The notes under the pieces: generated by a model
Databases searched by the model: none
The model's input: only the letters and a program-made list of their open reading frames with translations
Told to the model about the DNA's origin: nothing
Assembly (NCBI GenBank): GCA_963662525.1
Contig: OY759717.1
Location: 3,157,670-3,221,669 of the forward strand
Source: Bacteroidales bacterium
GTDB taxonomy: Bacteria > Bacteroidota > Bacteroidia > Bacteroidales > FEN-979
Reading direction: 5' to 3'
Length of the DNA stretch: 64,000 bases
Program-made: the position numbers and the translations under genes
Shown: in pieces, positions 7,796 to 64,000 of the stretch
Layout of the letters: each line of letters begins with the position of its first letter
Numbering within the stretch: position 1 is the first letter of the stretch

Positions 7796-9211
7796 CAGTA
7801 CAATATTTTCTACATGCTGGGTATGTGGAAACATGTCGACGGGCTGCGACAGTATCAATTCAAATTTTTCTGATAGGATAGACAGATCACGTGCCTGGGT
7901 TGCGGGATTACAACTGATATAAACAATTTTTTCCGGATATATTTCCAGCAAAGCCCTGATCACTTTTTCGTGCATCCCGGAGCGAGGTGGATCTGTAATT
8001 ATAGTTTCAGGATGGCCGTTCCTGCTAACAAAATCAGGAGTCAGCAATTTCTCTGTCTCACCGGCAAAAAAACGGGTGTTGGTAATTCCGTTCAGTATAG
8101 CATTGGCTTGTGCATCTTCGATGGCCGAAGGCACCGACTCCAGTCCGATAACCTTTCCGACAATTGGAGCAATGTAATTGGCAATGGTTCCTGTGCCGGT
8201 ATAGAGATCGTAAACCGTTTCTTTTCCTTGAAATCCGGCAAGTTCAGCCACTTTGCGGTAAAGATTCATCGCCTGGGTAGAATTTGTCTGGAAAAATGAT
8301 AAGGGACCTATGCGAAATAGCAGATCTTTCCCACCTTCTTTAAATGCCGGTATTCTTTCTGTGATAAATGCCTGTCCTTTGAAAAGTACCGGCTGTAAAT
8401 CACTGATTACATCATTTTTCTTGGGATTGATGACATAAAAGAGGGAAGTGATGGAAGGGAAGGCGGTAGCCAGTGCGGTCATTAAATCAGCAATAATTTT
8501 TTCATCATTCTCACGAAAAACCATGATCACCATCCATTCCCCCAATGTTGTGTTCCGAATGATCAGGTTACGCAGGAGTCCGGTCCAGTTGCGGACATCG
8601 TAGAAACTAAGCTGATGAAGTACCGCGTATTCCCTGATGAATAAGCGAATGGTATTGGTTGGTTCAGGCTGTAAAAAACATTGCTGAATATCGAGTACAC
8701 GATCGAACAGGGTAGGGATGTGAAAACCCAGTGCATTCCGGTCTTCCTGTGAATCTTCTCCATCTTTCAGGGCTTCTGTAAACCAGCGGCGGTTGGAAAA
8801 AGTGTATTCAAGTTTGTTCCGGTATTCCTGTTGAAAAGGGGATGGAAGAATGGGTAATACCACGGCATCCTTGAATTTTCCGATCCGTTTCAGGCTTTCA
8901 GCGACCTGCTTGTGTTTGAAATATAACTGTTCATCATATTTCAGGTTTTGCCAACGGCATCCTCCGCAGATTCCAAAATGAAGGCAAAATGGCTTGCTGC
9001 GTTGATCAGAATAGGTATGAAATCTGATGACTTTTCCTTCACGGTAGGATCGTTTTCTTTTAACGACCTGAATATCCACTACATCTCCCGGAATAACATA
9101 AGGAAGGAAGATCACCAGTTCACCGACACGGGCAACGGCTTTTCCATCCGAGGCAATGTCAATGATCTCCACTTTTTCATAGACTGGAAGAGGCATATTT
9201 TTTCTGCTCAT
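7736..9211 (-). CDS. rlmD: 23S rRNA (uracil-5-)-methyltransferase RlmD/RumA
   Basis: N-terminal TRAM domain, Fe-S cysteines (CLHFGICGGCRWQ), SAM-binding DLYTGTGTI and catalytic YISCNPAT. Confidence 0.85.
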   Translation of the reverse strand: MSRKNMPLPVYEKVEIIDIASDGKAVARVGELVIFLPYVIPGDVVDIQVVKRKRSYREGKVIRFHTYSDQRSKPFCLHFGICGGCRWQNLKYDEQLYFKHKQVAESLKRIGKFKDAVVLPILPSPFQQEYRNKLEYTFSNRRWFTEALKDGEDSQEDRNALGFHIPTLFDRVLDIQQCFLQPEPTNTIRLFIREYAVLHQLSFYDVRNWTGLLRNLIIRNTTLGEWMVIMVFRENDEKIIADLMTALATAFPSITSLFYVINPKKNDVISDLQPVLFKGQAFITERIPAFKEGGKDLLFRIGPLSFFQTNSTQAMNLYRKVAELAGFQGKETVYDLYTGTGTIANYIAPIVGKVIGLESVPSAIEDAQANAILNGITNTRFFAGETEKLLTPDFVSRNGHPETIITDPPRSGMHEKVIRALLEIYPEKIVYISCNPATQARDLSILSEKFELILSQPVDMFPHTQHVENIVLLKRRVVDTFLNSYPVDQAE

Positions 9212-10311
9212 GATTTTTCAGGGTATTCAAGGGTTCTTTTCCTGAAATGATGGGAATCGCCCCATTCACCATATCCAATTTCATCTCCGGCCATGGCAAT
9301 CCTGGCTTCCAGGCAATTCCTGCATTCGGAAGCTTCTTCATCAATACAGGGTTTGTTTTCGTATAACAGGTAGTTATTCCTGTATTTGACCGGTGTAAGG
9401 TTGGGCATAATGACATTGGCCCCTACCATCAGGGCTTTTTCCCTGCCCTGGGGGTCGATCGTTTGCATGGCCGTAGTGGCGGCAATGTTGATATCTTTCA
9501 TCATAATCCTCAGGATGGCCACCATTTTCAATGAAAGTCGGAATCTTTCCTGAAGGGGCATAAGCAGATCTTTGAATTTGTATAAGGGGGTATCCTCATG
9601 TTCGATATATGGCCCCATGCCAACCATGTCAACATCAAAATCCTTAAAAAAAAGCAAATCATCGGCCATGTCAGCAATTGTCTGGAAAGGCAATCCGATC
9701 ATCACACCGGTTCCAACCTGGAATCCCGTTTTTCTTAATGTATAAAGGGCTTCAACCCTTTTTCTGTAATCATGTTTCAGATTAACCGGATGCAGTTTTT
9801 TATATAATTCAGGATTGGATACTTCAATTCTGAGAAGATAACGGTGGGCACCGGCCTCGTACCAGCGGCGGTAGGTTTCTTCGGATTGTTCACCAAGAGA
9901 AAGTGTGACATGTAAATTTCCATTCGTGAATCGGTGAATTTCTTTTAATTGGCGTTCTATATCAGCGATAAACTTTTTTGTCGTCCGTTCCCCAGATTGA
10001 ATTACAATGGAAGCATAATTGTTTTCAAAAGCAAATTTTGCTGCTTCATATACTTCTTCATCCGTAAGCTCATAACGGATATACCGCTTATTTCCTGCCC
10101 GTATTCCGCAGTAGTAGCAATTTTTTTTGCAATAATTGGAATATTCAATGAGCCCCCTGAAGTATACCTTTCTGCCAACGAATTTTGCCTTTGTTTCCTG
10201 GGCGGATTTAAATATATGGAGTGTATCTTCAGCATTTGCTTCAAGTAAAGCAAGGATATCGCGATGAGAAAAAAAATCTTTTTGTAAAATATTTTCAACA
10301 GACGTACTCAT
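9208..10311 (-). CDS. hydE: [FeFe] hydrogenase H-cluster radical SAM maturase HydE
   Basis: Collinear with Thermotoga HydE as I recall it: RGLIEYSNYCKKNCYYCGIR (CX3CX2C), IVIQSGE, VTLSLGE, RYLLR, DMVGMGPYI, ATTAM, GANVIMPN. Its stop overlaps the rlmD start (ATGA). Confidence 0.8.
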   Translation of the reverse strand: MSTSVENILQKDFFSHRDILALLEANAEDTLHIFKSAQETKAKFVGRKVYFRGLIEYSNYCKKNCYYCGIRAGNKRYIRYELTDEEVYEAAKFAFENNYASIVIQSGERTTKKFIADIERQLKEIHRFTNGNLHVTLSLGEQSEETYRRWYEAGAHRYLLRIEVSNPELYKKLHPVNLKHDYRKRVEALYTLRKTGFQVGTGVMIGLPFQTIADMADDLLFFKDFDVDMVGMGPYIEHEDTPLYKFKDLLMPLQERFRLSLKMVAILRIMMKDINIAATTAMQTIDPQGREKALMVGANVIMPNLTPVKYRNNYLLYENKPCIDEEASECRNCLEARIAMAGDEIGYGEWGDSHHFRKRTLEYPEKS

Positions 10312-10384: not shown

Positions 10385-11143
10385 ATGGAAGAATTCATTA
10401 AAACTGTTTTGATCGATGATGATAAATCCAGTATCCTAGCTTTAAAAACATTATTGGAGGGGCACTTCCCGAAAGTCAGAATACTGGGCAGTGGTAATAC
10501 TGTCGCAGAAGGTGTTACCCTGATTGATGCGGTACGCCCTGAACTTGTTTTTTTAGACATCAATATGCCAGATGGCGAAGGGTTTGATGTAATCGAAAAG
10601 GTTGTTTTTCATAATTTTCAGGTAATCTTTATCACTGCCTTCGACAAATATGCCGTCAGGGCATTTGAATTTTCTGCCCTGCATTACCTCGTTAAACCAG
10701 TTACCCTGGATGGCATTAAATCCGCTATCGAAAGGTATAAGGAAACGAAAGATGAAAACATTGATAATAAACTGAGTATACTTAAAGATACCCTAAAAAA
10801 TAAAAACGAGAAGATCATTATACCTTCCACTGACGGACTAAATATTGTTAAACTTGGTGACATCCTGAGACTTGAAGCAGATGATGTTTATACCATGTTT
10901 TATATGACTGATGGTAAGCGTTTCGTCGCATCCAAACCCCTGAATAATTATGAAAAAATTTTGGAGGACTTACCGTTTTCAAGGATTCACAGCAAGCACC
11001 TGATCAACCTCATGTATATCAAGCGTTATATCAAAGGTAAAGGGGGATCGGTAATCATGGAAGACAATACTGAAGTTGAGGTTTCTGTGCGTAAGAAAGC
11101 TGACTTTATTGAAAAGTTGAAAAATTTTGCCCGTTTTGTTTAA
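10385..11143 (+). CDS. LytTR-family response regulator (REC + LytTR DNA-binding domain)
   Basis: REC domain (VLIDDD..VFLDINMPDG) followed by a LytTR-type C-terminus. No cognate kinase is adjacent. Confidence 0.85.
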   Translation: MEEFIKTVLIDDDKSSILALKTLLEGHFPKVRILGSGNTVAEGVTLIDAVRPELVFLDINMPDGEGFDVIEKVVFHNFQVIFITAFDKYAVRAFEFSALHYLVKPVTLDGIKSAIERYKETKDENIDNKLSILKDTLKNKNEKIIIPSTDGLNIVKLGDILRLEADDVYTMFYMTDGKRFVASKPLNNYEKILEDLPFSRIHSKHLINLMYIKRYIKGKGGSVIMEDNTEVEVSVRKKADFIEKLKNFARFV

Positions 11144-48366: not shown

Positions 48367-49041
48367 TTATTTCAGAAGATCAGGCCGGCGTTCACGGGTG
48401 CGCTCGAGGGATTGCTCCAGTCTCCATTTCGCAATTTCCTTGTCATTCCCCGACAGGAGGACATCCGGAACCTTATAACCCCTGAAATCAGCCGGACGGG
48501 TGTAAGCTGGTGGCGATAATAAACCATCCTGGTATGAATCCGACAGCGCTGAGGTTTCATCGTTCAGCACACCGGGGATCAGACGCACGATCGTATCAGT
48601 AAGCACAACAGCAGCCATTTCGCCACCTGAAAGAACATAATTGCCAATGGAAATTTCCCTGGTGATAAAATGTTTCCGGATCCGTTCATCAATGCCTTTG
48701 TAATGCCCGCAGAGAAAGATCATATTCTGATTTAACGAAAGCTGGTTGGCCAAATGCTGATCCAGTAATTCCCCGTCAGGGCTCAGATAAATGATCTCAT
48801 TATAAACGGATTTTGATTGCAGGTCTTCGATACAATTGACCACCGGTTCAGGCATCATCACCATCCCGGCTCCTCCGCCATAGGGATAATCGTCCACATT
48901 TTTATGCTTTCCCTTCGACCAGTTACGGATATTCAACAGATTGATCTGAACCAGTCCCTTTTCGGCAGCCCTTTTTATAATGGAATGACGGAAAGGCCCA
49001 TCAAACATCTCCGGAAACAAGGTTAAAATATCAATCTGCAT
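48367..49041 (-). CDS. trmD: tRNA (guanine37-N1)-methyltransferase
   Basis: MQIDILTLFPEMF, YPYGGGAGMVM, GHYKGIDER, LSGGE. Confidence 0.95.
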   Translation of the reverse strand: MQIDILTLFPEMFDGPFRHSIIKRAAEKGLVQINLLNIRNWSKGKHKNVDDYPYGGGAGMVMMPEPVVNCIEDLQSKSVYNEIIYLSPDGELLDQHLANQLSLNQNMIFLCGHYKGIDERIRKHFITREISIGNYVLSGGEMAAVVLTDTIVRLIPGVLNDETSALSDSYQDGLLSPPAYTRPADFRGYKVPDVLLSGNDKEIAKWRLEQSLERTRERRPDLLK

Positions 49042-49061
49042 CTTTTAACGTTTAATTGATT

Positions 49062-49085
49062 AATGCAAGAATGCAGGAATGCATC
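49062..49085. repeat. 8-nt tandem repeat AATGCARG x3 (reverse orientation of the GCATTCYT family)
   Basis: aatgcaag aatgcagg aatgcatc, between the MBL-hydrolase stop and the trmD start. Confidence 0.85.
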
Positions 49086-49869
49086 AAATTAAAATTTCAA
49101 GTCCGTCATAGGCCAGCTGGATGAAATCCGGCAGTTTTAGGTTAACTTCTTCATGTAAACCGACAAAATGGCTCAGATGTGTCAGGTAAGCTGCTTCTGG
49201 TCTTAGTTCTGACAGAATCTGCACAGCCTCGCTCACGGAGAAATGGGATACATGCTTGGAATTTCTCAGGGCATTCAGAACAATCACCCTGGAACCCCTG
49301 ATCTTTTCCATTTCTTCCGGAGGGATATAACTGGCATCGGTAATATAGGTAAAGTCGCCTATCCTGAAGCCCATGACGGGCAGCTTTTCATGCATCACTA
49401 GGATGGGTATGAATTCAACTCCCTGTATACTGAAAGGAGCTTCCGTAATGGGATGGATGGTTAGCTGTGGTGCACCAAAATAGCGGCTTTCCGAGAAAAT
49501 GTAGGGAAATTCAATGCGTATGGCTTCCATTACCCTTTCTGTGCCGTAAATATCAATTTTTTTGTTCAGAACATAATTAAAGGCACGCACATCATCAAGT
49601 CCGGCAATATGATCGCGGTGCTCATGGGTGAATATGACCGCATCGAGGTTGGCCACATTTTCCCGCAGCATCTGTATCCTGAAATCCGGACCGCAGTCAA
49701 TGACGAATGTCTTTCCATTCACCTCGATCATAATGGAGGTGCGTAATCTTTTGTCGTGTTGGTCTGTGGAAGTACATACCGGGCAATCACAGGTGATCAC
49801 CGGTACGCCGATGGAGGTGCCTGTGCCGAGAAAAGTAATGCGAAGCTGGTTATGGATAAATTCTTTCAT
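49084..49869 (-). CDS. MBL-fold metallo-hydrolase (PhnP/GPMB-like)
   Basis: FLGTGTS, CxCxxC Zn ribbon (CDCPVC), HEHRDH motif. Confidence 0.75.
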   Translation of the reverse strand: MKEFIHNQLRITFLGTGTSIGVPVITCDCPVCTSTDQHDKRLRTSIMIEVNGKTFVIDCGPDFRIQMLRENVANLDAVIFTHEHRDHIAGLDDVRAFNYVLNKKIDIYGTERVMEAIRIEFPYIFSESRYFGAPQLTIHPITEAPFSIQGVEFIPILVMHEKLPVMGFRIGDFTYITDASYIPPEEMEKIRGSRVIVLNALRNSKHVSHFSVSEAVQILSELRPEAAYLTHLSHFVGLHEEVNLKLPDFIQLAYDGLEILI

Positions 49870-50798
49870 CAGAAAATCAGCTCGTCAACCTGTGCTTTAT
49901 CCGCCATGAGTTGCTTTTTTAATTCTTCTATTGTCCCGAGTACTTTCTCTTCCCGGATTCTCTTATGAAAAAGAATAGTCACTACCTGTCCTTCAATATT
50001 TCCGTAGTTTTCGAACAAATGCGTTTCAACCAGGGTGTCCAGTGGATTCGTTTCGTTTTTACGGATGAAACACATTCCTCTTGAAAAGCTGTCTTCTCCT
50101 ATCACGGTAACTGCATATACTCCGTTTGGAGGTACCAGTTTGCAATCTTCCTCGATTTTTACCGAGTAGCAGGGAAATCCTATTTCCTCAAGGATGGGAG
50201 GACTTTTTGATACCGGTCCTTTGATGATATACTGATGATCGAGATAAGCATTAGCTTTCTGGATATTCCCATCCTGTAAGGCTTTCCTGATCTTTGTGGA
50301 ACTGACCGATTCATTCTGGATATCCTGTTCGGGAATCTCTTCCACTTCAAATCCGTATTCATAGCCCAGCTTTCTGAGGGCATCATAATCCCCTTCGCGG
50401 TTGTGGCCAAAATGGTGGTTGAATCCGATGACTATTTTTTTCGCATGGAGCTTGCTAATCAGGATATTTCGGATAAAATCGACTGAAGTGATCTTGGAAA
50501 ATTCAAGGGTAAAGGTCACAATGATGAGGTTATCCAGGCCGGCTTTTTCGAGCAGCTCAATTTTTTCCCGCTGGGAATTGATCAGAAAAAGGCCTTTGCC
50601 TGCAGTTTCAGGATATAAAACTTTTCTGGGATGGGGATGAAACGTGATCAAGACAGTTTCTCCATCGATTTCATTGGCGATTTTTTTTAATCTTTGCAGG
50701 ATGACCTTATGGCCGATATGAACTCCGTCGAATGATCCAGTGGTGATCACTGCATTCCGGATTTCACCTGCCTGGTCGAAATCATGAAATATTTTCAC
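49869..50798 (-). CDS. ribF: Bifunctional riboflavin kinase / FMN adenylyltransferase
   Basis: GSFDGVHIGH, FHPHPR and a C-terminal riboflavin kinase barrel. GTG start; its stop overlaps the next start (ATGA). Confidence 0.9.
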   Translation of the reverse strand: MKIFHDFDQAGEIRNAVITTGSFDGVHIGHKVILQRLKKIANEIDGETVLITFHPHPRKVLYPETAGKGLFLINSQREKIELLEKAGLDNLIIVTFTLEFSKITSVDFIRNILISKLHAKKIVIGFNHHFGHNREGDYDALRKLGYEYGFEVEEIPEQDIQNESVSSTKIRKALQDGNIQKANAYLDHQYIIKGPVSKSPPILEEIGFPCYSVKIEEDCKLVPPNGVYAVTVIGEDSFSRGMCFIRKNETNPLDTLVETHLFENYGNIEGQVVTILFHKRIREEKVLGTIEELKKQLMADKAQVDELIF

Positions 50799-50810
50799 AG
50801 TATTAACTTT

Positions 50811-51452
50811 CTACTTAAATCGTTCGTCGTTTTTCTTGGCAAAAAATGCCACTTTCTCCAGGGAAGTTATCATATCATATTCTTCCAGGTAAACATAAGG
50901 AGGAACATTGAGTGGTTTTGGGGTATAATTCAGAATTCCTTTAATACCAGACAACACCATGGTTTCAGCGATTTCCGGGGCCTGTTCAGTGGGAACAGTG
51001 ATAATTCCGATGGAAATATTGTTTTGTCTGATGATATCAGCCATCTGGTTCATATGATAACAGGGTACTCCATCATAAACCCGGTTGATTTTTTCAGGGT
51101 TAATATCGAAAGCAGCAATGATGCTGAGTTTCGATCTTTTTCCTTTGAAATAGCTGATCATGGCCTTCCCCAGGTTCCCCAAGCCGACAACAGCTACCCT
51201 TTGTCCTTTTTCTGAATCAATGATCTTACCGATGAGTTCTATCAGTTCCTTGATATCATAACCCTTTCGCAGGTTTCCGGAGTACCCGATCAGCATCAGG
51301 TCCCTTCTCACTTGAACCGGAGTAATATGAAGCATCTGCGCAATTTCATGGGAAAATACATGGGTTTTTTCCTTGGAAAGGATCATTAGCAATGCACGAC
51401 GGTACTGGCTTAACCTTTCAACGGTCTTATGCGGTAAATTCTTTATGAACAT
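50811..51452 (-). CDS. rex: Redox-sensing transcriptional repressor Rex
   Basis: Collinear with B. subtilis Rex as I recall it: winged-helix N-terminus (VERLSQYRR, RRDL..IG..G..GKGY) and Rossmann motif VVGLGNLGKA, GILNYTP. Confidence 0.85.
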   Translation of the reverse strand: MFIKNLPHKTVERLSQYRRALLMILSKEKTHVFSHEIAQMLHITPVQVRRDLMLIGYSGNLRKGYDIKELIELIGKIIDSEKGQRVAVVGLGNLGKAMISYFKGKRSKLSIIAAFDINPEKINRVYDGVPCYHMNQMADIIRQNNISIGIITVPTEQAPEIAETMVLSGIKGILNYTPKPLNVPPYVYLEEYDMITSLEKVAFFAKKNDERFK

Positions 51453-52576
51453 GGTTTGTCGATTGGAAGTCTGAGTTTAAATGTGCTGCCCTGATCCGGA
51501 ATACTGGTCACTTCAATAATTCCTGAATAATTATCGATTAATTTCTTTACGATGGAAAGACCTAATCCGGTTCCGGTTATATTTTTAGTTTTTTCATTTT
51601 TTATTCTGACAAAATCATCGAAAATCTTTTCAAGATCAGCCGCACTCATTCCGATTCCGGAATCGACAACAGTAATTTCGATGCAACCTTCATTTTCCTG
51701 AGCAGTGCAATCCACGGTTCCACCATCCTTATTATATTTAATGGCATTGGAAATAAGATTGTTGAAGATAATTTCCAGTTCATCTGCATCAGCTTTGATC
51801 ATCAACTGTTCAGGTCCATGAAGAGTCATTTTCACTTCCCGTTGAATGGAGTAGGGACGCATGGTGTCCATGGCGGTTCTGATTACCTGGATCAATTCAA
51901 CGTCCGTGATATTTCTTTTATTTTTTCCGGATTCAACTTTTGTGAGGTCTAGGAGATCGAGGATAAGTGTACGCATCCCTTTAATCCTGTCAAGGGAACG
52001 GTCGATCATGACATCATAATCATCCAGGTTGTTTCCCTGCTGTCTTTCCCTGATCATTTTAAGGTAACCTTCGATAGCATTAAGAGGGGCTTTTAACTCA
52101 TGGCTGAGAACCGATAAAAAGGTAAAGCGGATCTGTTTCCCGGTATCCTGCAACTTGGTGGTCATCTTTTTCAGAAAGACCCGTTTGGTGATATTTTCGA
52201 TAGAGGATTTTAATTCCTGGGGAGTAAAGGGTTTCGGGATGAAATCATAGGCTCCATCACTGGTGGCTTTTACTGCCAGTTCCAGGGATGCATAGGAAGT
52301 AATCATGACAACTATAATGTTTTTTTGCTTCTTCTTAATATATTCTAGGACTTCTACTCCCTGGATTCCGGGGAGTTTATTGTCAAGAAGAAGAATATCC
52401 GGAATATCATTTTCAATGATTTCTATCCCGGCTTCACCGGTAGAAGCTTCAAGAACTTCAAAATCGAAGGCTTCATCCATGAAAGGATAATCGACTCTGA
52501 AGTTTCTTAAAATACGGCTTACTCCGCTTCGGATGCCGGGTTCATCATCAACGACGAGTATTTTCAGTGTTGGCAT
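51443..52576 (-). CDS. Receiver-histidine kinase (REC + HisKA + HATPase_c, no other sensor domain)
   Basis: REC (ILVVDDE..LLLDNKLPG..KPF), H-box SHELKAPL, N/G boxes (ISNAIKY, GTGLGLSIV). The last 10 nt overlap the rex start. Confidence 0.85.
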   Translation of the reverse strand: MPTLKILVVDDEPGIRSGVSRILRNFRVDYPFMDEAFDFEVLEASTGEAGIEIIENDIPDILLLDNKLPGIQGVEVLEYIKKKQKNIIVVMITSYASLELAVKATSDGAYDFIPKPFTPQELKSSIENITKRVFLKKMTTKLQDTGKQIRFTFLSVLSHELKAPLNAIEGYLKMIRERQQGNNLDDYDVMIDRSLDRIKGMRTLILDLLDLTKVESGKNKRNITDVELIQVIRTAMDTMRPYSIQREVKMTLHGPEQLMIKADADELEIIFNNLISNAIKYNKDGGTVDCTAQENEGCIEITVVDSGIGMSAADLEKIFDDFVRIKNEKTKNITGTGLGLSIVKKLIDNYSGIIEVTSIPDQGSTFKLRLPIDKPCS

Positions 52577-52597
52577 GGTCAGTATTTCACCCCAAAT

Positions 52598-52996
52598 TTA
52601 GTGGAAAATAAGCAATTTATCAATTTCCGCCTTCAATAGTTCAGAACGTATTCCTTTATCAAGGAAACAATCGGCTTTGATCCATTTCCGGTTGTTCTCA
52701 TCGTTGATATCGAAACTGATACCGGTTTCGGCAGCCACTCCCGTCGCAATAATGATGGGAACATCGGGATATTTCTTTTTCATTTTATAGCATAAGATGA
52801 AGCCGCTGTCCTCATTTTCCATCATCAGGTCAAGAATAGCAAGATCTGGTTTTGTTTTCTCAATCAGTGCTTCTGCCTCTTTCTGACCTTCAGCAGTAAT
52901 GGTTTTAAATCCGAACTTTTCCACTTTCAACTTCAATTGAAAAAGATAATCCTGATCGTCATCCACGATCAGAATAGTTATGTTCCCAGGCTTCAT
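52598..52996 (-). CDS. Stand-alone response-regulator receiver domain protein
   Basis: ILIVDDD..LAILDLMM..PIIIATG; 132 aa with no output domain. Confidence 0.8.
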   Translation of the reverse strand: MKPGNITILIVDDDQDYLFQLKLKVEKFGFKTITAEGQKEAEALIEKTKPDLAILDLMMENEDSGFILCYKMKKKYPDVPIIIATGVAAETGISFDINDENNRKWIKADCFLDKGIRSELLKAEIDKLLIFH

Positions 52997-53003
52997 ATTC
53001 GAT

Positions 53004-53071
53004 TAATAATTAATAATTAATAATTTCTTTTACCAACTCACCAACTCACTAACTCACCAACTCACCAACTC
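53004..53071. repeat. Intercistronic tandem repeats: TAATAAT x3 (53004-53024), then the 8-nt unit ACCAACTC x5 (53032-53071)
   Basis: taataat taataat taataat ... accaactc accaactc actaactc accaactc accaactc. This forms most of the 76-nt spacer between the HydS-kinase stop and the REC start. Confidence 0.9.
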
Positions 53072-53072
53072 T

Positions 53073-55055
53073 TTACTTCCCTCTCGGAATGGTAACCCTG
53101 AACGTTGTTCCTGTTGTTCCTGCAGTTGGATCATTATTGGAGTCAACATGGATCTTGCCTTTGTGCATTTTAACAATTCCATAGATCAAAGCCAATCCAA
53201 GTCCGGTTCCCTTTCCCATTTCTTTCGTTGTAAAAAACGGAGTAAAAATTCTATCCATATTTGCTTTAGATATTCCCGTTCCTGTATCTGTAACCAAAAA
53301 GATTATTTCGCTTTCATTACCCTCTACACTCACTTTCAGGTTTCCGCCTGCAGGCATAGCCTCGATGGCATTTTTTTCCAGGTTAGTCATAACCTGCATC
53401 ATCTGATCAATATCGAGGCATGCCATAGGATCCGCAATATTCGGCTCAAATGTAAAGCTGACATTTTCAGGTTTTATAATAGAATTGAGGCTGTGTGCGG
53501 CAAATTTGACCACATCCGTTTCCGACAGGTTGACCTGGTTTTTTCTGGCAAAGTTCAATAATCCGCTGACGATTTTCTTACAACGGTCAGCTTGCTCCAC
53601 GATGAGTTTGAGATCCTCTTTAACTGCATCGTCTTCCTTTGCCTCGTCCATCAGAATATTACTGTACATAGTGATAACGCCAAGCGGATTATTCAGTTCA
53701 TGGGCAATACCGGCAGAAAGTTGACCCATATGGGCTAGTTTTTCGGACTGTTTCAAGGCGGCTTTTGCTTTGGCCAGCTTCTCATTGGAAATATTCAGGC
53801 TGCTGATGGAATCATGAAGTTTCTCAATGGCGAAAGGAAGACACATTTCTGTTTCAGCAAGACCATTCACGATGGCACTGGCATGATCGACACATGTATC
53901 GTATCCGCAGGCACCACAATTCAGATGATCCTTTGCGGTAAACTTTCCCATGGCATGAAGTGCTTCCAGGACTTCCTCGTTGGTGGGTGGTGCCAGCCGT
54001 CGGTCTTCAGGTGTGAAATGCTGGGATAAGTCAATGTCACTGAATTCATTCATTTCCTTATCCCACAATTCCTTATTGATATTCCTGAGTTTATTATATG
54101 CATATTTTCCAATAGCAGCGCTCCGTGAGAACCTTTTCCCTCCGGGGGATGTTCCGGGTCCCATGATGCAACCTTCACAGCATAATAACATCAGGTTCTT
54201 ATCTTTGATCAACCCGTCTTCATATTCTTTAATAGCTTCTTTGTAATTGATCCGTCCTTCAGCAACAATGACATGTTCTTCAGGGATGGTTTCTGCTCCA
54301 TTGGCGGTATGATATAAACCCCTGCTGATTGGGAAGATCGCTCCTTTTCCTGAATATGGAGGATCAAAATCAGAGGGTTCAACCTCATTAGGATGAATGT
54401 TCATATCCTGGAACATCTCACGAAGTTCAACAAAGGTAAGTACTTCATCAACCTCAAGGGTTTCGGCTTTTTTTGCAAAACATGGGCCAACGAAAACTAT
54501 TTTAGTCTCTTTGCCATATTTTTTACGCAGTATTCTTGTCATGGCAACCATGGGAGATGCAATCGGGGCAAGATTTTCGACGAGTTCGGAGTGGTAATGC
54601 CGGATAAAATAAACAATGGCTGGACAATCAGATGAGATTATCCCAACCCCATCATTTGATTTGATTTTTTTTTCATATTCCCTGGCAACGACATCCGCAC
54701 CAAATGAGACTTCGGTGACAAAATCAAAGCCAAGTCGACGCAGCATCCCGACTAAAACCCGGTGATTTTCTATTTCCGTGAACTCAGCAGGAAAACTTGG
54801 GGCTATACAAACGGCAATTTTTTTATCCGACTGTAAAAGAATTTTAACCTCTTCCGTTGAACGTAATGGATATTTTGCGCCCTGGCTGCAGACTTTAACA
54901 CAATTTCCACAACCAATACAGCGGTCGTTGATAACCTCAGCCTGGCCATTGATAATTTTTATGGCTTTAACCGGACATTCCCTGAGACAGGTATAGCAAA
55001 CCCGGCACCTGTCCTTCAGTGTAAAAACCAATTGCCTGTGATAAGAATGACTCAT
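53073..55055 (-). CDS. HydS-like sensory [FeFe]-hydrogenase domain fused to a histidine kinase
   Basis: N-terminal 2x[4Fe-4S] ferredoxin motifs. H-domain motifs are altered from the catalytic form (SSDCPA, GPCFAKKAE, LCCEGCIMGPG). A Cx2Cx4Cx16C motif follows (CGACGYDTC...EMC), then a coiled coil, H-box AHELNNPL and HATPase GTGLGLALI. The start overlaps the hydA stop (TAATG). Confidence 0.8.
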   Translation of the reverse strand: MSHSYHRQLVFTLKDRCRVCYTCLRECPVKAIKIINGQAEVINDRCIGCGNCVKVCSQGAKYPLRSTEEVKILLQSDKKIAVCIAPSFPAEFTEIENHRVLVGMLRRLGFDFVTEVSFGADVVAREYEKKIKSNDGVGIISSDCPAIVYFIRHYHSELVENLAPIASPMVAMTRILRKKYGKETKIVFVGPCFAKKAETLEVDEVLTFVELREMFQDMNIHPNEVEPSDFDPPYSGKGAIFPISRGLYHTANGAETIPEEHVIVAEGRINYKEAIKEYEDGLIKDKNLMLLCCEGCIMGPGTSPGGKRFSRSAAIGKYAYNKLRNINKELWDKEMNEFSDIDLSQHFTPEDRRLAPPTNEEVLEALHAMGKFTAKDHLNCGACGYDTCVDHASAIVNGLAETEMCLPFAIEKLHDSISSLNISNEKLAKAKAALKQSEKLAHMGQLSAGIAHELNNPLGVITMYSNILMDEAKEDDAVKEDLKLIVEQADRCKKIVSGLLNFARKNQVNLSETDVVKFAAHSLNSIIKPENVSFTFEPNIADPMACLDIDQMMQVMTNLEKNAIEAMPAGGNLKVSVEGNESEIIFLVTDTGTGISKANMDRIFTPFFTTKEMGKGTGLGLALIYGIVKMHKGKIHVDSNNDPTAGTTGTTFRVTIPRGK

Positions 55056-56773
55056 TAACTTGTTTGTTTTATGCGCGAAATATGCAGAAGTTCATGGTTC
55101 CGTTCACTTCCCTGCTTTCCAAGGAATTTTTCATAGATATCAGCCAAAACAGGATTTTTATGAGCAACCTTAATCATTTCTTCTTCATCCATGTCATAAA
55201 GTGCTTTCATGCGACTTTTTAGACTTTTCTCATCGCTTCCGATACGCTGACCGCCACCATTTATACAACCAAAAGGACAAGCCATCACTTCGATCAGATG
55301 AATATCATCTCTTCCTGACTCAATTTCGGAAAGCAAGCTTTTAATATTTGCAAGGCCGCTGACAGCCACGACATTGATAAGCTGTTTCCCGATTTTTATT
55401 TTAGCTTCTTTTTTTGTTTTTAATCCCCGCAAATCCTGAATTTTCAAAGGGCTGAGTTCCTGGCCAGTCATCATGAAATGAAGAGTGCGGAGAATCCCTT
55501 CCGAGGCTCCGCCCGAGATGCCAAAGAGTTTTCCTGCAGAACTGCACATGCTGAAAGCAGTATCGGTGGGTTCCGGCTCTATATTATTGAAATCAATACC
55601 AAGTAAATGAAAAAGTTTGACCAGTTCGCGGGTAGTCAGAACAGCATCCACCGCATGTGTTTTGTCATCTTTCAACAAGCCAATGGAGGCTTCATGTTTT
55701 TTTGCTGTACAGGGCATAACGGAAACGACAAAAACATTTTCAGGAGCATGACCTGCCGAACGGGAAATATAGTTTTTAATCATATTGCCCATCATTTGTT
55801 GAGGCGATCTTGCAGTGGAAAGGTGAGGTAGAAGTTCAGGACGAAGATCTTCAATATATTTCACCCATGAAGGACAACAAGCTGTGAAAAGCGGAAGTTT
55901 TCCATTTTTGTTTAAACGTTCCATAAGTTCAGTAGCCATCTCATTGATGTTTATATCAGCGGAGAAAGCAGTATCAAAGACCTGACGGAAACCAATTTTT
56001 TTCAAGGCTGTCCTGAGCAGGTTGATAATATCTTTGTTAGCCCTGATGCCAAGGTCTTCAGCCATAGAAGCCGGAACTGTCGGGGAAAACTGGATGACAT
56101 TGTGTAAGGATGGATTGTTCAGCGCTTCTATCACTGTATGAATGCTTGATCTCTCGGTAAGTGCGGCAGTTGGACAAACCATAATGCATTGTCCGCATTT
56201 TACGCAGGTCAGCGAATTCAAACCTTTATTATAAGTAGTCCCGATTCTGCTGTTGCTTCCTCTTCCCATAACATCAATGGCGGAGACACCGATCAATTCA
56301 TCACAGACTCTCATACACCGGCCGCATAAAATACACTTTGCGGGATCCCTCTCAATGCTGGTACAGGCTTTATCGATTTTTACCGTTGGGGGTTTAGCAT
56401 GATATTTTCTTTCCCTGATATTGAGTTCAACAGCCAATGACTGGAGTTCACAATTTCCGCTTCTTTCACAATAAAGACAATCATCAGGATGATTGGCCAG
56501 CAATAATTCCACGATGGTTTTACGGGCTTTCATGACCCGTGGAGAATGAGTGCGGATTTTCATCCATTCTTCTACATTATGTGAACAGGCAGGTACAAGT
56601 CCGGGTAAACCATCTACTTCCACAATACACATCCGGCATGCACCGGTAGGAGTAAAGCTGCTCATATTGCATAATGTGGGGACTTTGATTCCGTTACGCT
56701 GTAAAACTGTCAGAATGGTCTCCCCGCGTTTGGCAGATAAAGTTTGATCGTTAATTTCAATATTGAAGAGCAT
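55055..56773 (-). CDS. hydA: [FeFe] hydrogenase catalytic subunit HydA (HydABC type)
   Basis: N-terminal 2Fe-2S and NuoG-like clusters, 2x[4Fe-4S], and H-cluster motifs FTACCPSW, VMPCTAKKHE, EVMACPFGCINGGGQ. Confidence 0.9.
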   Translation of the reverse strand: MLFNIEINDQTLSAKRGETILTVLQRNGIKVPTLCNMSSFTPTGACRMCIVEVDGLPGLVPACSHNVEEWMKIRTHSPRVMKARKTIVELLLANHPDDCLYCERSGNCELQSLAVELNIRERKYHAKPPTVKIDKACTSIERDPAKCILCGRCMRVCDELIGVSAIDVMGRGSNSRIGTTYNKGLNSLTCVKCGQCIMVCPTAALTERSSIHTVIEALNNPSLHNVIQFSPTVPASMAEDLGIRANKDIINLLRTALKKIGFRQVFDTAFSADININEMATELMERLNKNGKLPLFTACCPSWVKYIEDLRPELLPHLSTARSPQQMMGNMIKNYISRSAGHAPENVFVVSVMPCTAKKHEASIGLLKDDKTHAVDAVLTTRELVKLFHLLGIDFNNIEPEPTDTAFSMCSSAGKLFGISGGASEGILRTLHFMMTGQELSPLKIQDLRGLKTKKEAKIKIGKQLINVVAVSGLANIKSLLSEIESGRDDIHLIEVMACPFGCINGGGQRIGSDEKSLKSRMKALYDMDEEEMIKVAHKNPVLADIYEKFLGKQGSERNHELLHISRIKQTS

Positions 56774-56781
56774 GCTGGTGT

Positions 56782-58731
56782 TTATTTGATATATATAGCA
56801 TTGAATTTACACAGGTCGAAACAGATGCCGCAGCCTGTACACTTTGCCTCCACAATAAAATGAGGCATCTTAATGCTTCCGATGATGGCATTTTCCGGAC
56901 ACTTTTTCTGACAGACATTACATCCGTTACAGGCATCCGGTTCGATATAGAAGGTTCTCAGGTCATGGCAGACACCTGCTACACAACGGCGATCGAAAAT
57001 ATGCTCTTCAAATTCTTCCCGAAACCATTTTAATGAACTAAGGACCGGGTTAGGGGCGTTTTGTCCAAGTCCACATAAGGAAGTATCCCGGATAACTTCA
57101 GCTAGATTCTCTAGCTGTACGACTCCTTTGAAACGTTCCAGCGTTTCGTGGGTGAATTCTTCTTTTGGTCGGCGGGTAATGGCATCGAGAATATCCAGCA
57201 TACGCTTTGTCCCTTCTCGGCATGGGATGCACTTGCCACAACTTTCTTTCTGTAAAAATTCCATAAAATATTTTGACAGGCTAACCATGCAGACTGATTC
57301 ATCAAGAACAATTAAGCCTCCAGGGCCAATGGTTGCACCTATTTCCTGAAGTGATTCGTACCCCATCTCTGTTTCCATATCCTTAGCGGGAATACAAACA
57401 CCCGATGGACCGCCCAGCTGAACTGCTTTTAATGGCTTGCCATTCCGGATACCTCCGGCAATTTTAAAAACGATATCTGAGAGGGTGATCCCCATGGATA
57501 TTTCAATAAATCCGGAATGAACAGCCATCCCTGAGACTGATAAAATTTTCGTTCCTTTACTTTCTTTGTTTCCAATCGCTTTAAACCATGATGGTCCATT
57601 CTCCAGGATTAACGGGATATTGGCAAGTGTTTCAACATTGTTGACAATGGTTGGCTGACCCATGAATCCGGATTCTGCCGGGTAAGGCGGTTTTGATTTG
57701 GGTATGCCGCGCCTGCCTTCCAGGCTGGCAATCAGGGCTGTTTCTTCACCGCAAACAAAGGCACCTGCCCCTTGACGGAGTTGGATCGAAAGATTAAATC
57801 CACTTCCGAATATATTCTCTCCCAGAAATCCATAATCCTTTGCCTGAAGAATGGCTCTTTCTAGGATCCCTAGTGGGTGGGTGTGAATGGATCGAACATA
57901 AATAAAGGCTGTACTTGCACCTATTGCATATGCGGCAATTGCAATTCCTTCCAATACCCGGTGAGGATCAGATTCAATGATTGCCCGGTCCATAAAGGCT
58001 CCGGGATCACTTTCATCGGCATTGCAAATCAAATATTTCTTGTCACTGGCAGTACCGAGGGCTACCTTCCATTTCCTGCCGGTATTGTACCCTCCACCTG
58101 CTCTTCCCCGGAGCTCACTCTGCTCAACTATCTCGCAGACCTTGTCGGCAGTGTAATTCAAGACTGTTTTGTACAGGGAACGATAACCTCCCCAGGCCAG
58201 ATAATCATTAATATTATCGGGCGAAATAATACCCGCATACCTCAGAATATTCCTATGTTGCAAGGCAAAGTAGGGGAGCTGGTCTATATAAGGGAGGTTG
58301 GCCCAATCCTCATGATGTTTGCATCTGTATTGTCCGAGTACGGAATCTTCCGGAATAGCCCGGTGAAATATGGAATGAAGCAGGTCTTCCACTTTATCAG
58401 CGGTTGCATGATGAAATGAAACCCTTGACTTTCCTGGTAGTTGCACATCAAGTAATGGCTCAGCTGAACAGAATCCGGTACATCCGACCGATATCAGTTC
58501 GGCCTCAATTTTATTATCCGACAGAAAATTTTCAACGGCTTCCCGGGTCTGTAATGCGCCAGATATTACACCACATGTAGCGGTTCCGATATAAATGATC
58601 GGCCGCTCAATCTTCTCTCGACGTAATAACATCAAACGGTCTTCAGTGTGTTTATCTAAAATGCCTGAGTAATTCTTCAGAACTTTATCTGTCAGAAATC
58701 CTTTGATATCAGAGGTGCTATTTGAGGGCAT
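56782..58731 (-). CDS. hydB: NuoF-like NAD(P)H-binding flavoprotein subunit HydB
   Basis: Thioredoxin-like N-terminus, GRAGGGYNTGRKW FMN/NADH site, CGKCIPCREG cluster, C-terminal 2x[4Fe-4S] ferredoxin. Confidence 0.9.
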   Translation of the reverse strand: MPSNSTSDIKGFLTDKVLKNYSGILDKHTEDRLMLLRREKIERPIIYIGTATCGVISGALQTREAVENFLSDNKIEAELISVGCTGFCSAEPLLDVQLPGKSRVSFHHATADKVEDLLHSIFHRAIPEDSVLGQYRCKHHEDWANLPYIDQLPYFALQHRNILRYAGIISPDNINDYLAWGGYRSLYKTVLNYTADKVCEIVEQSELRGRAGGGYNTGRKWKVALGTASDKKYLICNADESDPGAFMDRAIIESDPHRVLEGIAIAAYAIGASTAFIYVRSIHTHPLGILERAILQAKDYGFLGENIFGSGFNLSIQLRQGAGAFVCGEETALIASLEGRRGIPKSKPPYPAESGFMGQPTIVNNVETLANIPLILENGPSWFKAIGNKESKGTKILSVSGMAVHSGFIEISMGITLSDIVFKIAGGIRNGKPLKAVQLGGPSGVCIPAKDMETEMGYESLQEIGATIGPGGLIVLDESVCMVSLSKYFMEFLQKESCGKCIPCREGTKRMLDILDAITRRPKEEFTHETLERFKGVVQLENLAEVIRDTSLCGLGQNAPNPVLSSLKWFREEFEEHIFDRRCVAGVCHDLRTFYIEPDACNGCNVCQKKCPENAIIGSIKMPHFIVEAKCTGCGICFDLCKFNAIYIK

Positions 58732-58732
58732 G

Positions 58733-59197
58733 TTATACCGTTTTTTCTTTGATTGACCGGATGATTTTTGTGAGTTTTTCGGTATTCACCCGTGTATAAT
58801 ATTGTTCATTTACCTTGATAACAGGCCCGTGATCACAGGCTCCCATACAACTCACCACCTCGATGCTAAACTTTTTGTCACGGCTTGTATTCCCAGCTTT
58901 TACCTTTAAATGTTTTTCAAGTTCCTTCAGTAATGCAGTTGAGCCATGCAAATGACAGGCTGTCCCTTGGCAAACCTGGACATGATATCGCCCGGGCCGT
59001 CCATGGCGGAATTGATCATAAAAAGCAGCTACGGAATAAATTTTATTCAAAGGAAGACCCAGGTAAGCAGATACCATTTCCAAGGTGTCATCCGTCAAAA
59101 ACCCTTGTTCCTTCTGTATGTCCTGTAATATCGGTAGCAAACCCTCATGTTTGTTCGGGGGATACTTTTCCAGGATCTGGCTAGTTGTTATCTCCAT
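58733..59197 (-). CDS. hydC: NuoE-like [2Fe-2S] subunit HydC
   Basis: VCQGTACHLHG ... VSCMGACDHGPV are thioredoxin-like 2Fe-2S ligands. Confidence 0.85.
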   Translation of the reverse strand: MEITTSQILEKYPPNKHEGLLPILQDIQKEQGFLTDDTLEMVSAYLGLPLNKIYSVAAFYDQFRHGRPGRYHVQVCQGTACHLHGSTALLKELEKHLKVKAGNTSRDKKFSIEVVSCMGACDHGPVIKVNEQYYTRVNTEKLTKIIRSIKEKTV

Positions 59198-59223: not shown

Positions 59224-59231
59224 CAAATATA
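59224..59231 (-). promoter_or_regulatory. Bacteroidota -7 promoter box TATATTTG (minus strand) for hydCBA
   Basis: The plus strand reads caaatata, 27 nt upstream of the hydC ATG. Confidence 0.45.
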
Positions 59232-59278: not shown

Positions 59279-59306
59279 TTGTGAATAAATAAACAAATAT
59301 TTGTTT
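59279..59306. promoter_or_regulatory. Candidate operator: Rex-box-like TTGTGAATAAATAAACAA (59279-59296) overlapping the perfect 16-bp palindrome AAACAAATATTTGTTT (59291-59306)
   Basis: Read directly. The left half-site matches TTGTGAA exactly, and the right half matches TTCACAA at 5 of 7 positions. The palindrome is perfect. Confidence 0.35.
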
Positions 59307-61316: not shown

Positions 61317-62501
61317 ATGGATGAAAAGTTTTTTATCGAAGTGACCTGCCAACAGAAAAATCATGGTGAAGCAAGGATATGCGGCGATGTCTTTATTTCA
61401 CGTAGGATCAAGGAAGAAGGAAGGATCATTGTCGTTCTGTCAGATGGTATGGGGCATGGGATAAAAGCCAATATGCTGGGAACTCTTACGGCCACTCTGG
61501 CTGTTAATTTCACTCAGGAACATAAAAGTGTCCAGAAGATTACTGAGATAATCATGAATACTTTGCCGGTCGACAGTGTGAAACATATGAACTATTCCAC
61601 TTTTACTATTGTTGAGATAGATGTGGAAGGAGATGTACGTATTCTTGAATATGAGAATCCAAGAACACTTATTTTGAGCGGGGCCCGCCTGCATGAACCT
61701 CTTTGGAATTGCGTAGTTCTGGAAGGGGATAGACATGCCGGGAAGGAGGTTTTAACCTGTACATTCCGTCCCCAGAAGGAAGACCGCATCGTTTTTTGTT
61801 CTGATGGTGTTACTCAATCAGGTCTTGGAAGTGACAAATATCCTACCGGTTGGGGAATGATCAACCTGGAAAAATATGTTCTGGATACCATCCATGAAGA
61901 ACATGATATTTCTGCTGTAAAGCTGGCTACACAGGTTGTCAATAAAGCCAACCTGAATGATAATTTTCACCCCCTGGATGATATCAGCTGTGGGGTTATT
62001 TATTTCAGGGAACCTCGCAAATTGATGATATGTTCAGGTCCTCCCCAGAATCCGGAAAATGATATATTCTTTTGTGGTCTGTTGAAGCAATTCGAAGGAA
62101 AAAAAATAATTTCCGGGGCTACCACCGCAGATATGGTTGCGCGTGAATGGAATGAAACAATAAAGGATAGCAATGTGATACTTGACCCGGAATTGCCGCC
62201 TGTTTCGCATATGAATGGCATAGAGCTGATTACAGAAGGTATCCTTACCCTGAGCAAGGTCAGTGAATTATTGAAAAAATATAACCAGAATTACAAGCTG
62301 GGAAAAGGACCTGCTGATGAGATCGTTAAATTCATCTTGGAGTGTGATGAGATTCATTTTCTTGTCGGAACAAATATCAATACAGCGCATCAGGATCCAA
62401 CCTTGCCTGTCGAACTGGAACTCCGTCGCACCGTCGTCCACCGCATTACACGTACCCTGGAAGAAAAATTCCTGAAAGAAGTTACGATGAGGTTTTATTA
62501 A
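61317..62501 (+). CDS. PP2C/SpoIIE-family protein phosphatase with an uncharacterised C-terminal domain
   Basis: GDVF...VVLSDGMGHGIKANMLG...FCSDGVTQ are SpoIIE-type metal-binding motifs. I cannot assign the ~160-aa C-terminal extension to a family. Confidence 0.75.
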   Translation: MDEKFFIEVTCQQKNHGEARICGDVFISRRIKEEGRIIVVLSDGMGHGIKANMLGTLTATLAVNFTQEHKSVQKITEIIMNTLPVDSVKHMNYSTFTIVEIDVEGDVRILEYENPRTLILSGARLHEPLWNCVVLEGDRHAGKEVLTCTFRPQKEDRIVFCSDGVTQSGLGSDKYPTGWGMINLEKYVLDTIHEEHDISAVKLATQVVNKANLNDNFHPLDDISCGVIYFREPRKLMICSGPPQNPENDIFFCGLLKQFEGKKIISGATTADMVAREWNETIKDSNVILDPELPPVSHMNGIELITEGILTLSKVSELLKKYNQNYKLGKGPADEIVKFILECDEIHFLVGTNINTAHQDPTLPVELELRRTVVHRITRTLEEKFLKEVTMRFY

Positions 62502-63659: not shown

Positions 63660-64000
63660 CTAATTGCTGTACTCAGCAACAATATCCTGAACACCCTCTG
63701 GGGATACACGTCCATAAACTTTTTCGCCAACCAATACAACAGGTGCCAGGCCACAGGCACCAACACAACGAAGGCAGCTCAAGGAGAATTTTCCGTCAGA
63801 GGTAGTTTCGCCAACCTGGATCTTAAGCTGCCGCTTGAATTCTTCCAGTACCTTTTCAGCTCCCCGCACATAACAGGCCGTACCCAGGCAGATTGAAATG
63901 GGATGCTCTCCTTTTGGAGTCATGGTGAAAAATGAGTAAAAGGTAACCACCCCATAAACATGAGCAACAGAAACCTTTAATTCATTGGCGATAACTTCCT
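63660..64000 (-). CDS. Second NuoE/HydC-like [2Fe-2S] subunit (5'-truncated by window edge)
   Basis: The frame is open to base 64000 (..EVIANELKVSVAHVYGVVTFYSFF..). ICLGTACYVRG ... CLRCVGACGLAPV are 2Fe-2S ligands. Confidence 0.75.
   Translation of the reverse strand, partial: EVIANELKVSVAHVYGVVTFYSFFTMTPKGEHPISICLGTACYVRGAEKVLEEFKRQLKIQVGETTSDGKFSLSCLRCVGACGLAPVVLVGEKVYGRVSPEGVQDIVAEYSN

Follow-up and report, generated by a model that had tools for sequence, protein, structure and literature searches.

The 64-kb stretch of Bacteroidales DNA analyzed here (contig OY759717.1; hereafter the window), from a host genome of 3.55 Mb, carries on its minus strand the genes of an [FeFe] hydrogenase and, behind them, three signaling genes and the regulatory gene rex, the full order being hydC-hydB-hydA, HydS-like sensor kinase, single-domain receiver (REC), receiver-input histidine kinase (REC-HK), rex, ribF, a metallo-β-lactamase (MBL)-fold gene, trmD and rplS. 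Positions are those of the window unless prefixed C1, which denotes the genome contig; all genes of this run lie on the minus strand, and neighbors from hydC to rplS are spaced by 1–97 nt or overlap. The hydrogenase genes are hydC, for a NuoE-like [2Fe-2S] subunit (58733..59197; Pfam 2Fe-2S_thioredx, E 4.5e-49), hydB, for a NuoF-like FMN/NADH subunit (56782..58731; Complex1_51K, NADH_4Fe-4S and Fer4), and hydA, for the catalytic subunit (55055..56773; Fer2_4, NADH-G_4Fe-4S_3, Fe_hyd_lg_C at 8e-81, and Fe_hyd_SSU). The signaling triad comprises a 660-aa protein in which a HydS-like sensory hydrogenase domain is joined to HisKA and HATPase domains, proposed as the H2 sensor (53073..55055), a 132-aa receiver, proposed as the terminal acceptor (52598..52996), and the 377-aa REC-HK (51443..52576); it is followed by rex, encoding a predicted NADH/NAD+-sensing repressor of 213 aa (50811..51452). 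A first-pass annotation of the sequence had read this arrangement as a multi-step phosphorelay that lacks a DNA-binding output and ends in rex. The two receiver proteins it placed downstream of the HydS-kinase are present, with matching coordinates and Pfam domains, and its statement that neither carries a helix-turn-helix (HTH) or effector domain agrees with Pfam, which returned Response_reg alone for the small receiver and only Response_reg, HisKA and HATPase_c for REC-HK.

The Kinase-Fused Hydrogenase Sensor

The sensor kinase contains the Pfam domains Fer4, Fe_hyd_lg_C, FeS, HisKA (residues 443–506) and HATPase_c (548–658), with no receiver domain detected by Pfam, and its kinase core is nearest to AtoS and ZraS in NCBIfam. 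It combines an H-domain, a C-terminal FeS motif and a fused kinase with an adjoining group A3 hydrogenase, which are the features of a kinase-linked [FeFe] sensory hydrogenase, and its phospho-accepting H452 is invariant in 84 triads. The available portion of the HydDB classification describes group C1 as 'histidine kinase-linked (putative)' sensory [FeFe] hydrogenases (PMC5037454), and in the available text of a second survey a 'BfuT' with a histidine-kinase domain belongs to sub-type V BfuABC clusters (PMC11406978). As far as the accessible parts of these and a third source extend, the kinase-fused sensor has been catalogued with no member biochemically characterized (PMC5037454, PMC11406978, PMC7768429). 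The protein described here resembles HydDB C1 and BfuT in joining a HydS-like H-domain, a C-terminal FeS motif and HisKA/HATPase domains beside hydABC; moreover, the same survey, in the portion available, describes clusters of Bacteroidota in which bfuC is preceded by the gene of a second sensor, as is the case here, and lists Tenuifilum thalassicum, Perlabentimonas gracilis and Williamwhitmania taraxaci among the carriers of such a two-sensor cluster (PMC11406978). In the window this second sensor is a HydS with a PAS domain that diverges from hydC, and a PP2C phosphatase gene lies next to it. Where the two differ is in what follows, as the available parts of the C1 and BfuT literature list the sensor and are silent on a receiver and receiver-kinase pair behind it, and a search of the literature found no description of such a pair following a kinase-fused sensor.

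A hydrogenase-like sensor that steers a histidine kinase governing hydrogenase expression is also seen in the HoxBC-HoxJ-HoxA and HupUV-HupT-HupR pathways. In these, the sensor and the kinase are separate proteins, the sensor is of the [NiFe] type and an NtrC-type DNA-binding regulator forms the end of the pathway, whereas no NtrC-type regulator is present in cis here. The Hox and Hup H2 sensors are placed in [NiFe] group 2b, 'histidine kinase-linked', in the available portion of the HydDB classification (PMC5037454).

Conservation of the Triad

Species-representative genomes were scanned for the sensor kinase and gave more than 570 relatives, with context counts drawn from the best 80 loci wherever the contig allows. 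REC directly follows the sensor kinase in all 73 Bacteroidota loci (73/73) and REC-HK is present behind REC in 70/70, with hydA immediately upstream of the sensor kinase in 66/73. The complete order hydCBA-sensor kinase-REC-REC-HK-rex-ribF-MBL-trmD is maintained in 23 loci from the same family and other families of the order. Orthologues of REC-HK with 54–90% identity occur in 24 of 41 related genomes, and among 400 sampled genomes of the phylum only one further orthologue turned up. Six more distant loci were reached through an Armatimonadota query, the labels being Armatimonadota, Candidatus 'Bro...' and Planctomycetota, with three unlabelled; all six have the sensor kinase, a receiver of 133–152 aa and a REC-(PAS)-HisKA-HATPase protein, and the genes often overlap by 1–4 nt. 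Homologues of the sensor with E of 1e-60 or better number 7179, so that several thousand triads are on record. A comparison of 84 distinct orthologous triads showed no variation in phospho-acceptor and catalytic residues.

No DNA-binding response regulator adjoins the triad in any of the ~75 loci examined, other phyla included. As the linkage extends across Bacteroidota and the distant loci, the triad can be regarded as an old, self-contained module, and the missing DNA-binding end as belonging to that module rather than being an accident of the host genome. The gene arrangement is not due to chance. Judged from gene order and sequence, the signaling genes make up a single conserved module, which goes with a HydABC hydrogenase of the electron-bifurcating type.

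A Probable Receiver-Controlled Kinase

In REC-HK, Pfam recognizes Response_reg (6–126), HisKA (152–217) and HATPase_c (263–373) and no other domain, while the AlphaFold2 model places the receiver at 3–114, a connecting helix at 119–143, the dimerization and histidine phosphotransfer (DHp) domain at 148–215 and the catalytic ATP-binding (CA) domain at 224–371. Invariant in the 84 triads are D10, D11, D65, T93, K115 and H159, as are the ATP boxes (N, G1, F and G2), represented by N272/N273/N277, D305-G307-G309 and G335-G337-G339. The kinase core is nearest to PnpS, PhoR, WalK and HK853, and the receiver scores best against LuxO, followed by PhoB, NtrX and AtoC. Receiver-first kinases are common in the host genome, where 11 proteins carry kinase domains behind an N-terminal receiver.

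The top Foldseek match of REC-HK is LvrB (PDB 8vc9), aligned over its full length with E 7.5e-24, and REC-HK shares with LvrB-type kinases the domain order, a receiver as sole input, and an intact H-box and ATP boxes; the lengths are nearly the same, but the sequence identity is only 19–20%. LvrB is the prototype Rec-controlled kinase of Leptospira, in which phosphorylation of the receiver by LvrA frees the catalytic domain (PMC13269768). The freed kinase autophosphorylates with ATP and then phosphorylates the receiver of LvrC, a receiver and anti-sigma domain protein that is unlinked to lvrB and was found as its partner by phosphotransfer profiling; the activation mechanism of this class was solved only in 2026 (PMC13269768). 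The pathway predicted here is like the Lvr pathway in that a first kinase acts on a second one, which has a receiver as its sole input and in turn phosphorylates a further receiver protein. It is unlike it in that the upstream kinase is hydrogenase-like, the adjacent receiver has no anti-sigma or output domain, and activation of REC-HK by receiver phosphorylation is predicted from analogy.

This likeness bears on the term phosphorelay, which in its strict sense does not suit the cluster. A true His-Asp-His-Asp phosphorelay, in which the DHp histidine of REC-HK would receive its phosphoryl group from its own receiver in the manner of Spo0B or a histidine phosphotransfer (Hpt) protein, is formally permitted by the succession of kinase, receiver, histidine domain and receiver. 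Pfam, however, finds no Hpt domain in the cluster, the only two Hpt matches of the host genome being at C1:3146687 and C1:190736, and the receiver of REC-HK is N-terminal, not C-terminal as in a hybrid kinase. The ATP-binding domain is intact with its N, G1, F and G2 boxes invariant, which would be needless in a pure phosphotransferase, and the homologous architecture of LvrB works through receiver-triggered autophosphorylation (PMC13269768). The conserved ATP-binding boxes argue for an LvrB-like mode, and together with the lack of an Hpt domain and the LvrB-like model they point to a kinase cascade rather than a phosphorelay, which is very improbable. With its intact and conserved catalytic residues the triad looks functional and, as far as its sequence tells, is a Rec-controlled kinase cascade in a version with a hydrogenase sensor and with Rex beside it; as a kind of system it is not new.

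The Small Receiver

The 132-aa receiver has the CheY-like residue set of acidic pocket, acceptor aspartate, Thr/Ser and lysine; D12, D13, D14, D56 and K114 are invariant in 84 orthologues and position 85 (T85 here) is T or S. Its AlphaFold2 model (pLDDT 84.4) is a (βα)5 fold of five strands and five helices, with the β4-α4 loop (86–99) disordered and α4 short, and its best Foldseek matches are Spo0F, MicA/YycF and RR468 (probability 1.0); by family it is nearest to PhoB, YycF and RR468. The motif W105-I106-x-A108-D109 is invariant ahead of β5, and in the model the α4-β5 face is an unusual version of the usual receiver output face. Both REC-HK and the small receiver find a counterpart in the cognate pair HK853-RR468 of Thermotoga maritima (PDB 3dge), as the REC-HK core and the 132-aa receiver each match its members, although the likeness does not go beyond fold and family and HK853 has no N-terminal receiver.

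Rex and Its Candidate Operators

Rex consists of Put_DNA-bind_N (PF06971) and CoA_binding (PF02629) domains, scores above the cut-off of NCBIfam NF003995 (201.8 vs 126) and that of NF003996, and its alignment with B. subtilis Rex (2vt2, E 4e-33) runs from one end to the other and shows the motifs GLGNLG (GxGxxG) and VRRD. It resembles Rex of B. subtilis (2vt2) and T. thermophilus (3ikt) in its two domains and in the kind of palindromic operator that precedes hydrogenase operons linked to NADH, and differs in that its gene overlaps that of a kinase and has ribF-trmD behind it; its NADH response and DNA binding are predicted. As the first-pass annotation noted, the REC-HK stop lies 10 nt within the rex open reading frame (ORF): REC-HK ends in ..aaa cca tgt tca taa and rex starts with ATG TTC ATA A, an overlap of 10 nt at 51443–51452, which can be read directly from the sequence. 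The description of the pathway as ending in rex holds at this locus, where the overlap is kept, but not in general, since rex comes next after the triad in only 41 of 64 Bacteroidota loci.

Scanning with the consensus TTGTGAA-N4-TTCACAA gives as the best site of the window a palindrome with 2 mismatches, TTGTGAATAAATAAACAA (59279–59296, no strand assigned), in the spacer between hydC and the divergent hydS-PAS gene. The host genome has 10 intergenic sites with at most 2 mismatches, and four of these precede three [FeFe]-hydrogenase operons within 25 kb, namely hydCBA, an operon that begins with a DRTGG gene and one that begins with another NuoE-like gene, the latter just outside the window. 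Likewise, a site with at most 3 mismatches is found 46–143 nt upstream of hydC in 28 of 36 rex-linked relatives. The presence of Rex-like boxes before three [FeFe]-hydrogenase operons is best read as making Rex a parallel NADH input, and from its sequence and sites Rex is most likely an ordinary operator-binding repressor of hydCBA and the two further hydrogenase operons.

In the rex-unlinked loci no box lies within 300 nt of hydC (0/23), another receiver gene separating the promoter region from hydC there. An escape of these loci from Rex control, as the contrast with the 28 of 36 rex-linked relatives would suggest, was considered and rejected when a rescan up to 2 kb upstream of hydC gave Rex-like boxes in 15 of 23, with at most 2 mismatches in 6 of 23. 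Inspection of L092 by hand found two boxes in the spacer ahead of the first operon gene, which is the receiver gene, and all five rex-unlinked genomes tested (5/5) encode Rex elsewhere. Rex control of the hydC operon therefore seems to be general, as predicted from these boxes, with only the location of the rex gene varying, and this too favors Rex as a parallel NADH input. Tandem Rex-like boxes ~63 nt apart are seen upstream of the extra receiver gene in several rex-unlinked loci.

A closer tie between Rex and the cascade has also been considered, in which the phosphorylated small receiver or REC-HK would bind Rex and alter its operator binding, so that the H2 and NADH signals would merge. 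The overlap of rex with REC-HK here, found again in 30 of 56 distinct rex-linked loci, would suit such a role, as would the retention of Rex in the five tested genomes in which it is unlinked from the relay. So would two distant loci with another gene order, where a long Rex-like gene (326–335 aa) lies directly before the sensor kinase (L119:5993–7000 and L121:6002–6982); its product has a ~125-aa Cys-rich N-terminal extension with a weak DUF3795 match and a degenerate GxGxxG motif, and may represent a relative of Rex responding to a signal other than NADH. Against this, rex is not in the neighborhood in 23 of 64 Bacteroidota and 4 of 6 distant loci with the triad unchanged, Rex is of the standard 213 aa with no extra domain, and its boxes also precede two other hydrogenase operons. 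In other bacteria rex is commonly sited next to an operon under its control, and such placement is sufficient reason for the linkage. Rex as output of the cascade is, on balance, quite improbable. Rex has also been reported beside kinase-fused group C hydrogenases in Elusimicrobia (bioRxiv 10.1101/765248).

Both further hydrogenase operons with Rex-like boxes lie at 63660–64000 of the window and beyond (G000:C1:3221329–3236900), with an OmpR-type two-component pair between them to the right of the window; Rex-like sites in this part of the contig are at C1:3229812 and C1:3236954/3236998. The DRTGG-headed operon encodes DRTGG, an RsbW-like ATPase, a 465-aa HydS-like protein, DRTGG, PHP, ATPase, 2Fe-2S, NuoF, HydA and NuoE, and the other a NuoE-like protein, a short NuoF-like gene product and HydA. 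The best two matches to the Rex consensus in the genome, with 1 mismatch each, are at C1:1552715 and C1:3469482, ahead of paralogous Rrf2-family genes, and may be the operators of the Rrf2 proteins themselves rather than Rex sites.

Direction of Signal Flow

The most likely order of phosphotransfer, as deduced from family relationships, is from the HydS-kinase to REC-HK and from there to the small receiver. AtoS and ZraS, the families nearest to the sensor kinase core, serve NtrC-type receivers, and AtoC and NtrX are among the matches of the REC-HK receiver; the PhoR/WalK/HK853-like core of REC-HK would likewise pair with the PhoB/YycF/RR468-like small receiver, these being partners of such kinases. 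A natural loss of the sensor provides a further indication. In genome G032 the sensor kinase is gone from between hydA and REC, with AT-rich repeats and a small ORF in its place (L035:1901–2471), and REC and REC-HK are still present. In this locus the REC-HK receiver departs from the otherwise invariant sequence at 8 of 47 positions, including D11T in the acidic pocket, compared with 0–3 changes in six equally distant orthologues that retain the sensor, and no change is seen in the REC-HK DHp and CA domains (0/55) or in the small receiver (0/32). This pattern fits a receiver of REC-HK that takes its input from the sensor, with the REC-HK core and the small receiver as the retained pair.

In the mechanism proposed, the HydS-like domain would presumably sense H2 or redox state and set the autokinase activity of the fused HisKA/HATPase domains, and the sensor kinase would phosphorylate D65 in the N-terminal receiver of REC-HK. 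As in LvrB, this would free the ATP-binding domain so that H159 is autophosphorylated with ATP, after which the phosphoryl group would move to D56 of the 132-aa receiver, which, having no output domain, would act by binding another protein. Rex would be a separate, parallel input that binds the operator in the hydC promoter region and those ahead of the two further hydrogenase operons nearby and responds to NADH/NAD+; the position of its gene after the cascade would give co-expression by translational coupling, not signal transfer. The genes with their intact catalytic residues, their conservation and the operator-like sites are observed directly, whereas the phosphotransfer order, the H2 input and the protein-level output are those parts that we infer. 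The reading as a whole, an H2-sensor kinase cascade with protein-level output and Rex as a parallel NADH input, is given about an even chance of being correct.

Several points weigh against it. The loss of the sensor is known from the single genome of L035, and family matching is soft, PhoB being the second-best match of the REC-HK receiver. Covariation between DHp and receiver α1 in the 84 triads gave no signal, the specificity positions being nearly invariant and the six distant triads too few for the purpose. Some loci of other phyla contain a second small receiver, or an additional one behind REC-HK, which also fits a branched design. Finally, the presence of rex or the long Rex-like gene beside the triad in two gene orders may point beyond co-regulation.

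Possible Unlinked Acceptors

In a branched pathway the sensor kinase would phosphorylate both receivers, with the 132-aa protein acting as a phosphate sink or in feedback, and REC-HK would signal to an unlinked regulator as LvrB does to LvrC. The precedent is that the partner of LvrB is not encoded beside lvrB and was identified only through phosphotransfer profiling (PMC13269768). Potential targets are at hand, as ~12 receiver proteins of the host genome have no kinase within two genes, including an HTH-less NtrC-like protein, a LytTR protein, a REC-PAS protein, a PorX-like REC-PglZ protein and several with LuxR-like C-termini (classified by eye), and the extra small receivers of some loci would be accommodated as well. 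However, the small receiver adjoins REC-HK in every locus, and it and the REC-HK kinase core are fully conserved even where the sensor has been lost. No unlinked candidate of matching distribution was found, the LytTR protein being the only one tested, and it fails. Branching is considered rather unlikely. The orphan NtrC-like regulator (G000:C1:2473674–2474825; receiver and sigma-54 AAA+ domain, 383 aa) lacks an HTH, its sequence stopping right behind the AAA+ domain, and adjoins the mraZ-rsmH division genes.

The LytTR protein is a REC-LytTR regulator (10385–11143, plus strand) divergent from hydE (9208–10311, minus strand), which the first-pass annotation had put forward as a possible terminal acceptor. 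Of the nine LytTR regulators it alone has no LytS-type kinase next to it, and its gene shares a 73-nt spacer with hydE. Its distribution does not match that of the relay: orthologues with at least 59% identity occur in G008 and G012, relatives in which no relay was found, and none was found in eight relay-bearing genomes (G003, G006, G007, G010, G015, G017, G018 and G024). In addition, in eight loci with hydG, hydE and hydF right after the relay the flanking ORFs are not LytTR-like by eye. Given this mismatch the candidate was dropped, its involvement being extremely improbable. The maturase genes are scattered in the host genome, with hydG at C1:220021, hydF at C1:2898011 and hydE in the window.

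A Possible Output on the Enzyme

One form of protein-level output is a cascade with no transcriptional end at all, in which the phosphorylated 132-aa receiver would bind HydABC or a maturation or partner-switching protein and so provide H2 feedback on hydrogenase activity, with Rex alone acting on transcription. This suggestion draws on the lack of a DNA-binding partner in ~75 loci across several phyla, the unusual conserved α4-β5 face of the receiver, and the occurrence of a paralogous receiver gene 23–382 nt upstream of hydC in 24 rex-unlinked loci; no fusion of a receiver to HydC was seen in any locus examined, and the suggestion is regarded as unlikely. If the small receiver does target the enzyme, this would add a new level to the control of electron-bifurcating hydrogenases. 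With the sensor fused to its histidine kinase, H2 sensing would read out directly as autophosphorylation, and the next two proteins of the chain are known and small. As Rex can be treated as a separate input and the LytTR candidate dropped, the question that remains is narrowed to the target of the small receiver.

The receivers encoded ahead of hydC in the rex-unlinked relatives (L066:4689–5712, L092:4388–5729, L075:847–5747 and 21 more) are 164–183 aa long and have a long insertion after β4. These loci often add a NarL-like receiver without the acidic pair and HTH, and often also a Cache/PAS HisKA_3 kinase with a NarL-type regulator. The host genome has no close homologue of the 165-aa receiver or the NarL-type pair found beside hydC in such relatives.

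Transcription of the Run and Flanking Features

No terminator-like site was seen on the hydC-to-trmD strand, the intrinsic-terminator scan being at background level with a model unsuited to Bacteroidota, and the sigma-70 promoter scan was at background level for a model that is likewise unsuited. A motif scan for the Bacteroidota-type box TAnnTTTG found matches ahead of hydC, ahead of rplS and 17 nt ahead of the REC-HK start. The first is a -7 promoter box, TATATTTG (59224..59231, minus strand), 27 nt 5′ of the hydC ATG, assigned by consensus match only, and a box within 100 nt of hydC recurs in 39 of 62 related loci. The candidate internal box TAAATTTG (52593..52600, minus strand) overlaps the stop codon of REC and lies 17 nt ahead of the REC-HK ATG; a box within 40 nt of REC-HK is present in 28 of 56 rex-linked loci versus 1 of 22 rex-unlinked loci. 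This box may, as its position suggests, give REC-HK, rex and the essential ribF-trmD genes expression independent of the Rex-controlled hydC promoter. The earlier conclusion that rex is co-expressed with the relay agrees with the 10-nt translational overlap but is qualified by the candidate promoter before REC-HK, from which separate transcription would be possible.

Past rex lies a housekeeping tail of ribF, the MBL-fold gene and trmD (48367..50798, minus strand; Pfam), with 12 nt between rex and ribF, then a 1-nt overlap, then 42 nt before trmD. Beyond the second sensor, the PP2C (SpoIIE-family) protein (61317–62501, plus strand) has no Pfam match over residues 230–394, with no STAS or anti-sigma partner seen adjoining it. 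At the other end of the triad the sensor kinase gene overlaps hydA by 1 nt and is separated from REC by a 76-nt spacer made up nearly entirely of tandem repeats (53002..53071, no strand assigned; Tandem Repeats Finder), five copies of the octamer ACCAACTC and 3.4 of the heptamer ATTAATA. A comparable short repeat array is located at 49062–49083, ahead of the MBL-fold gene.

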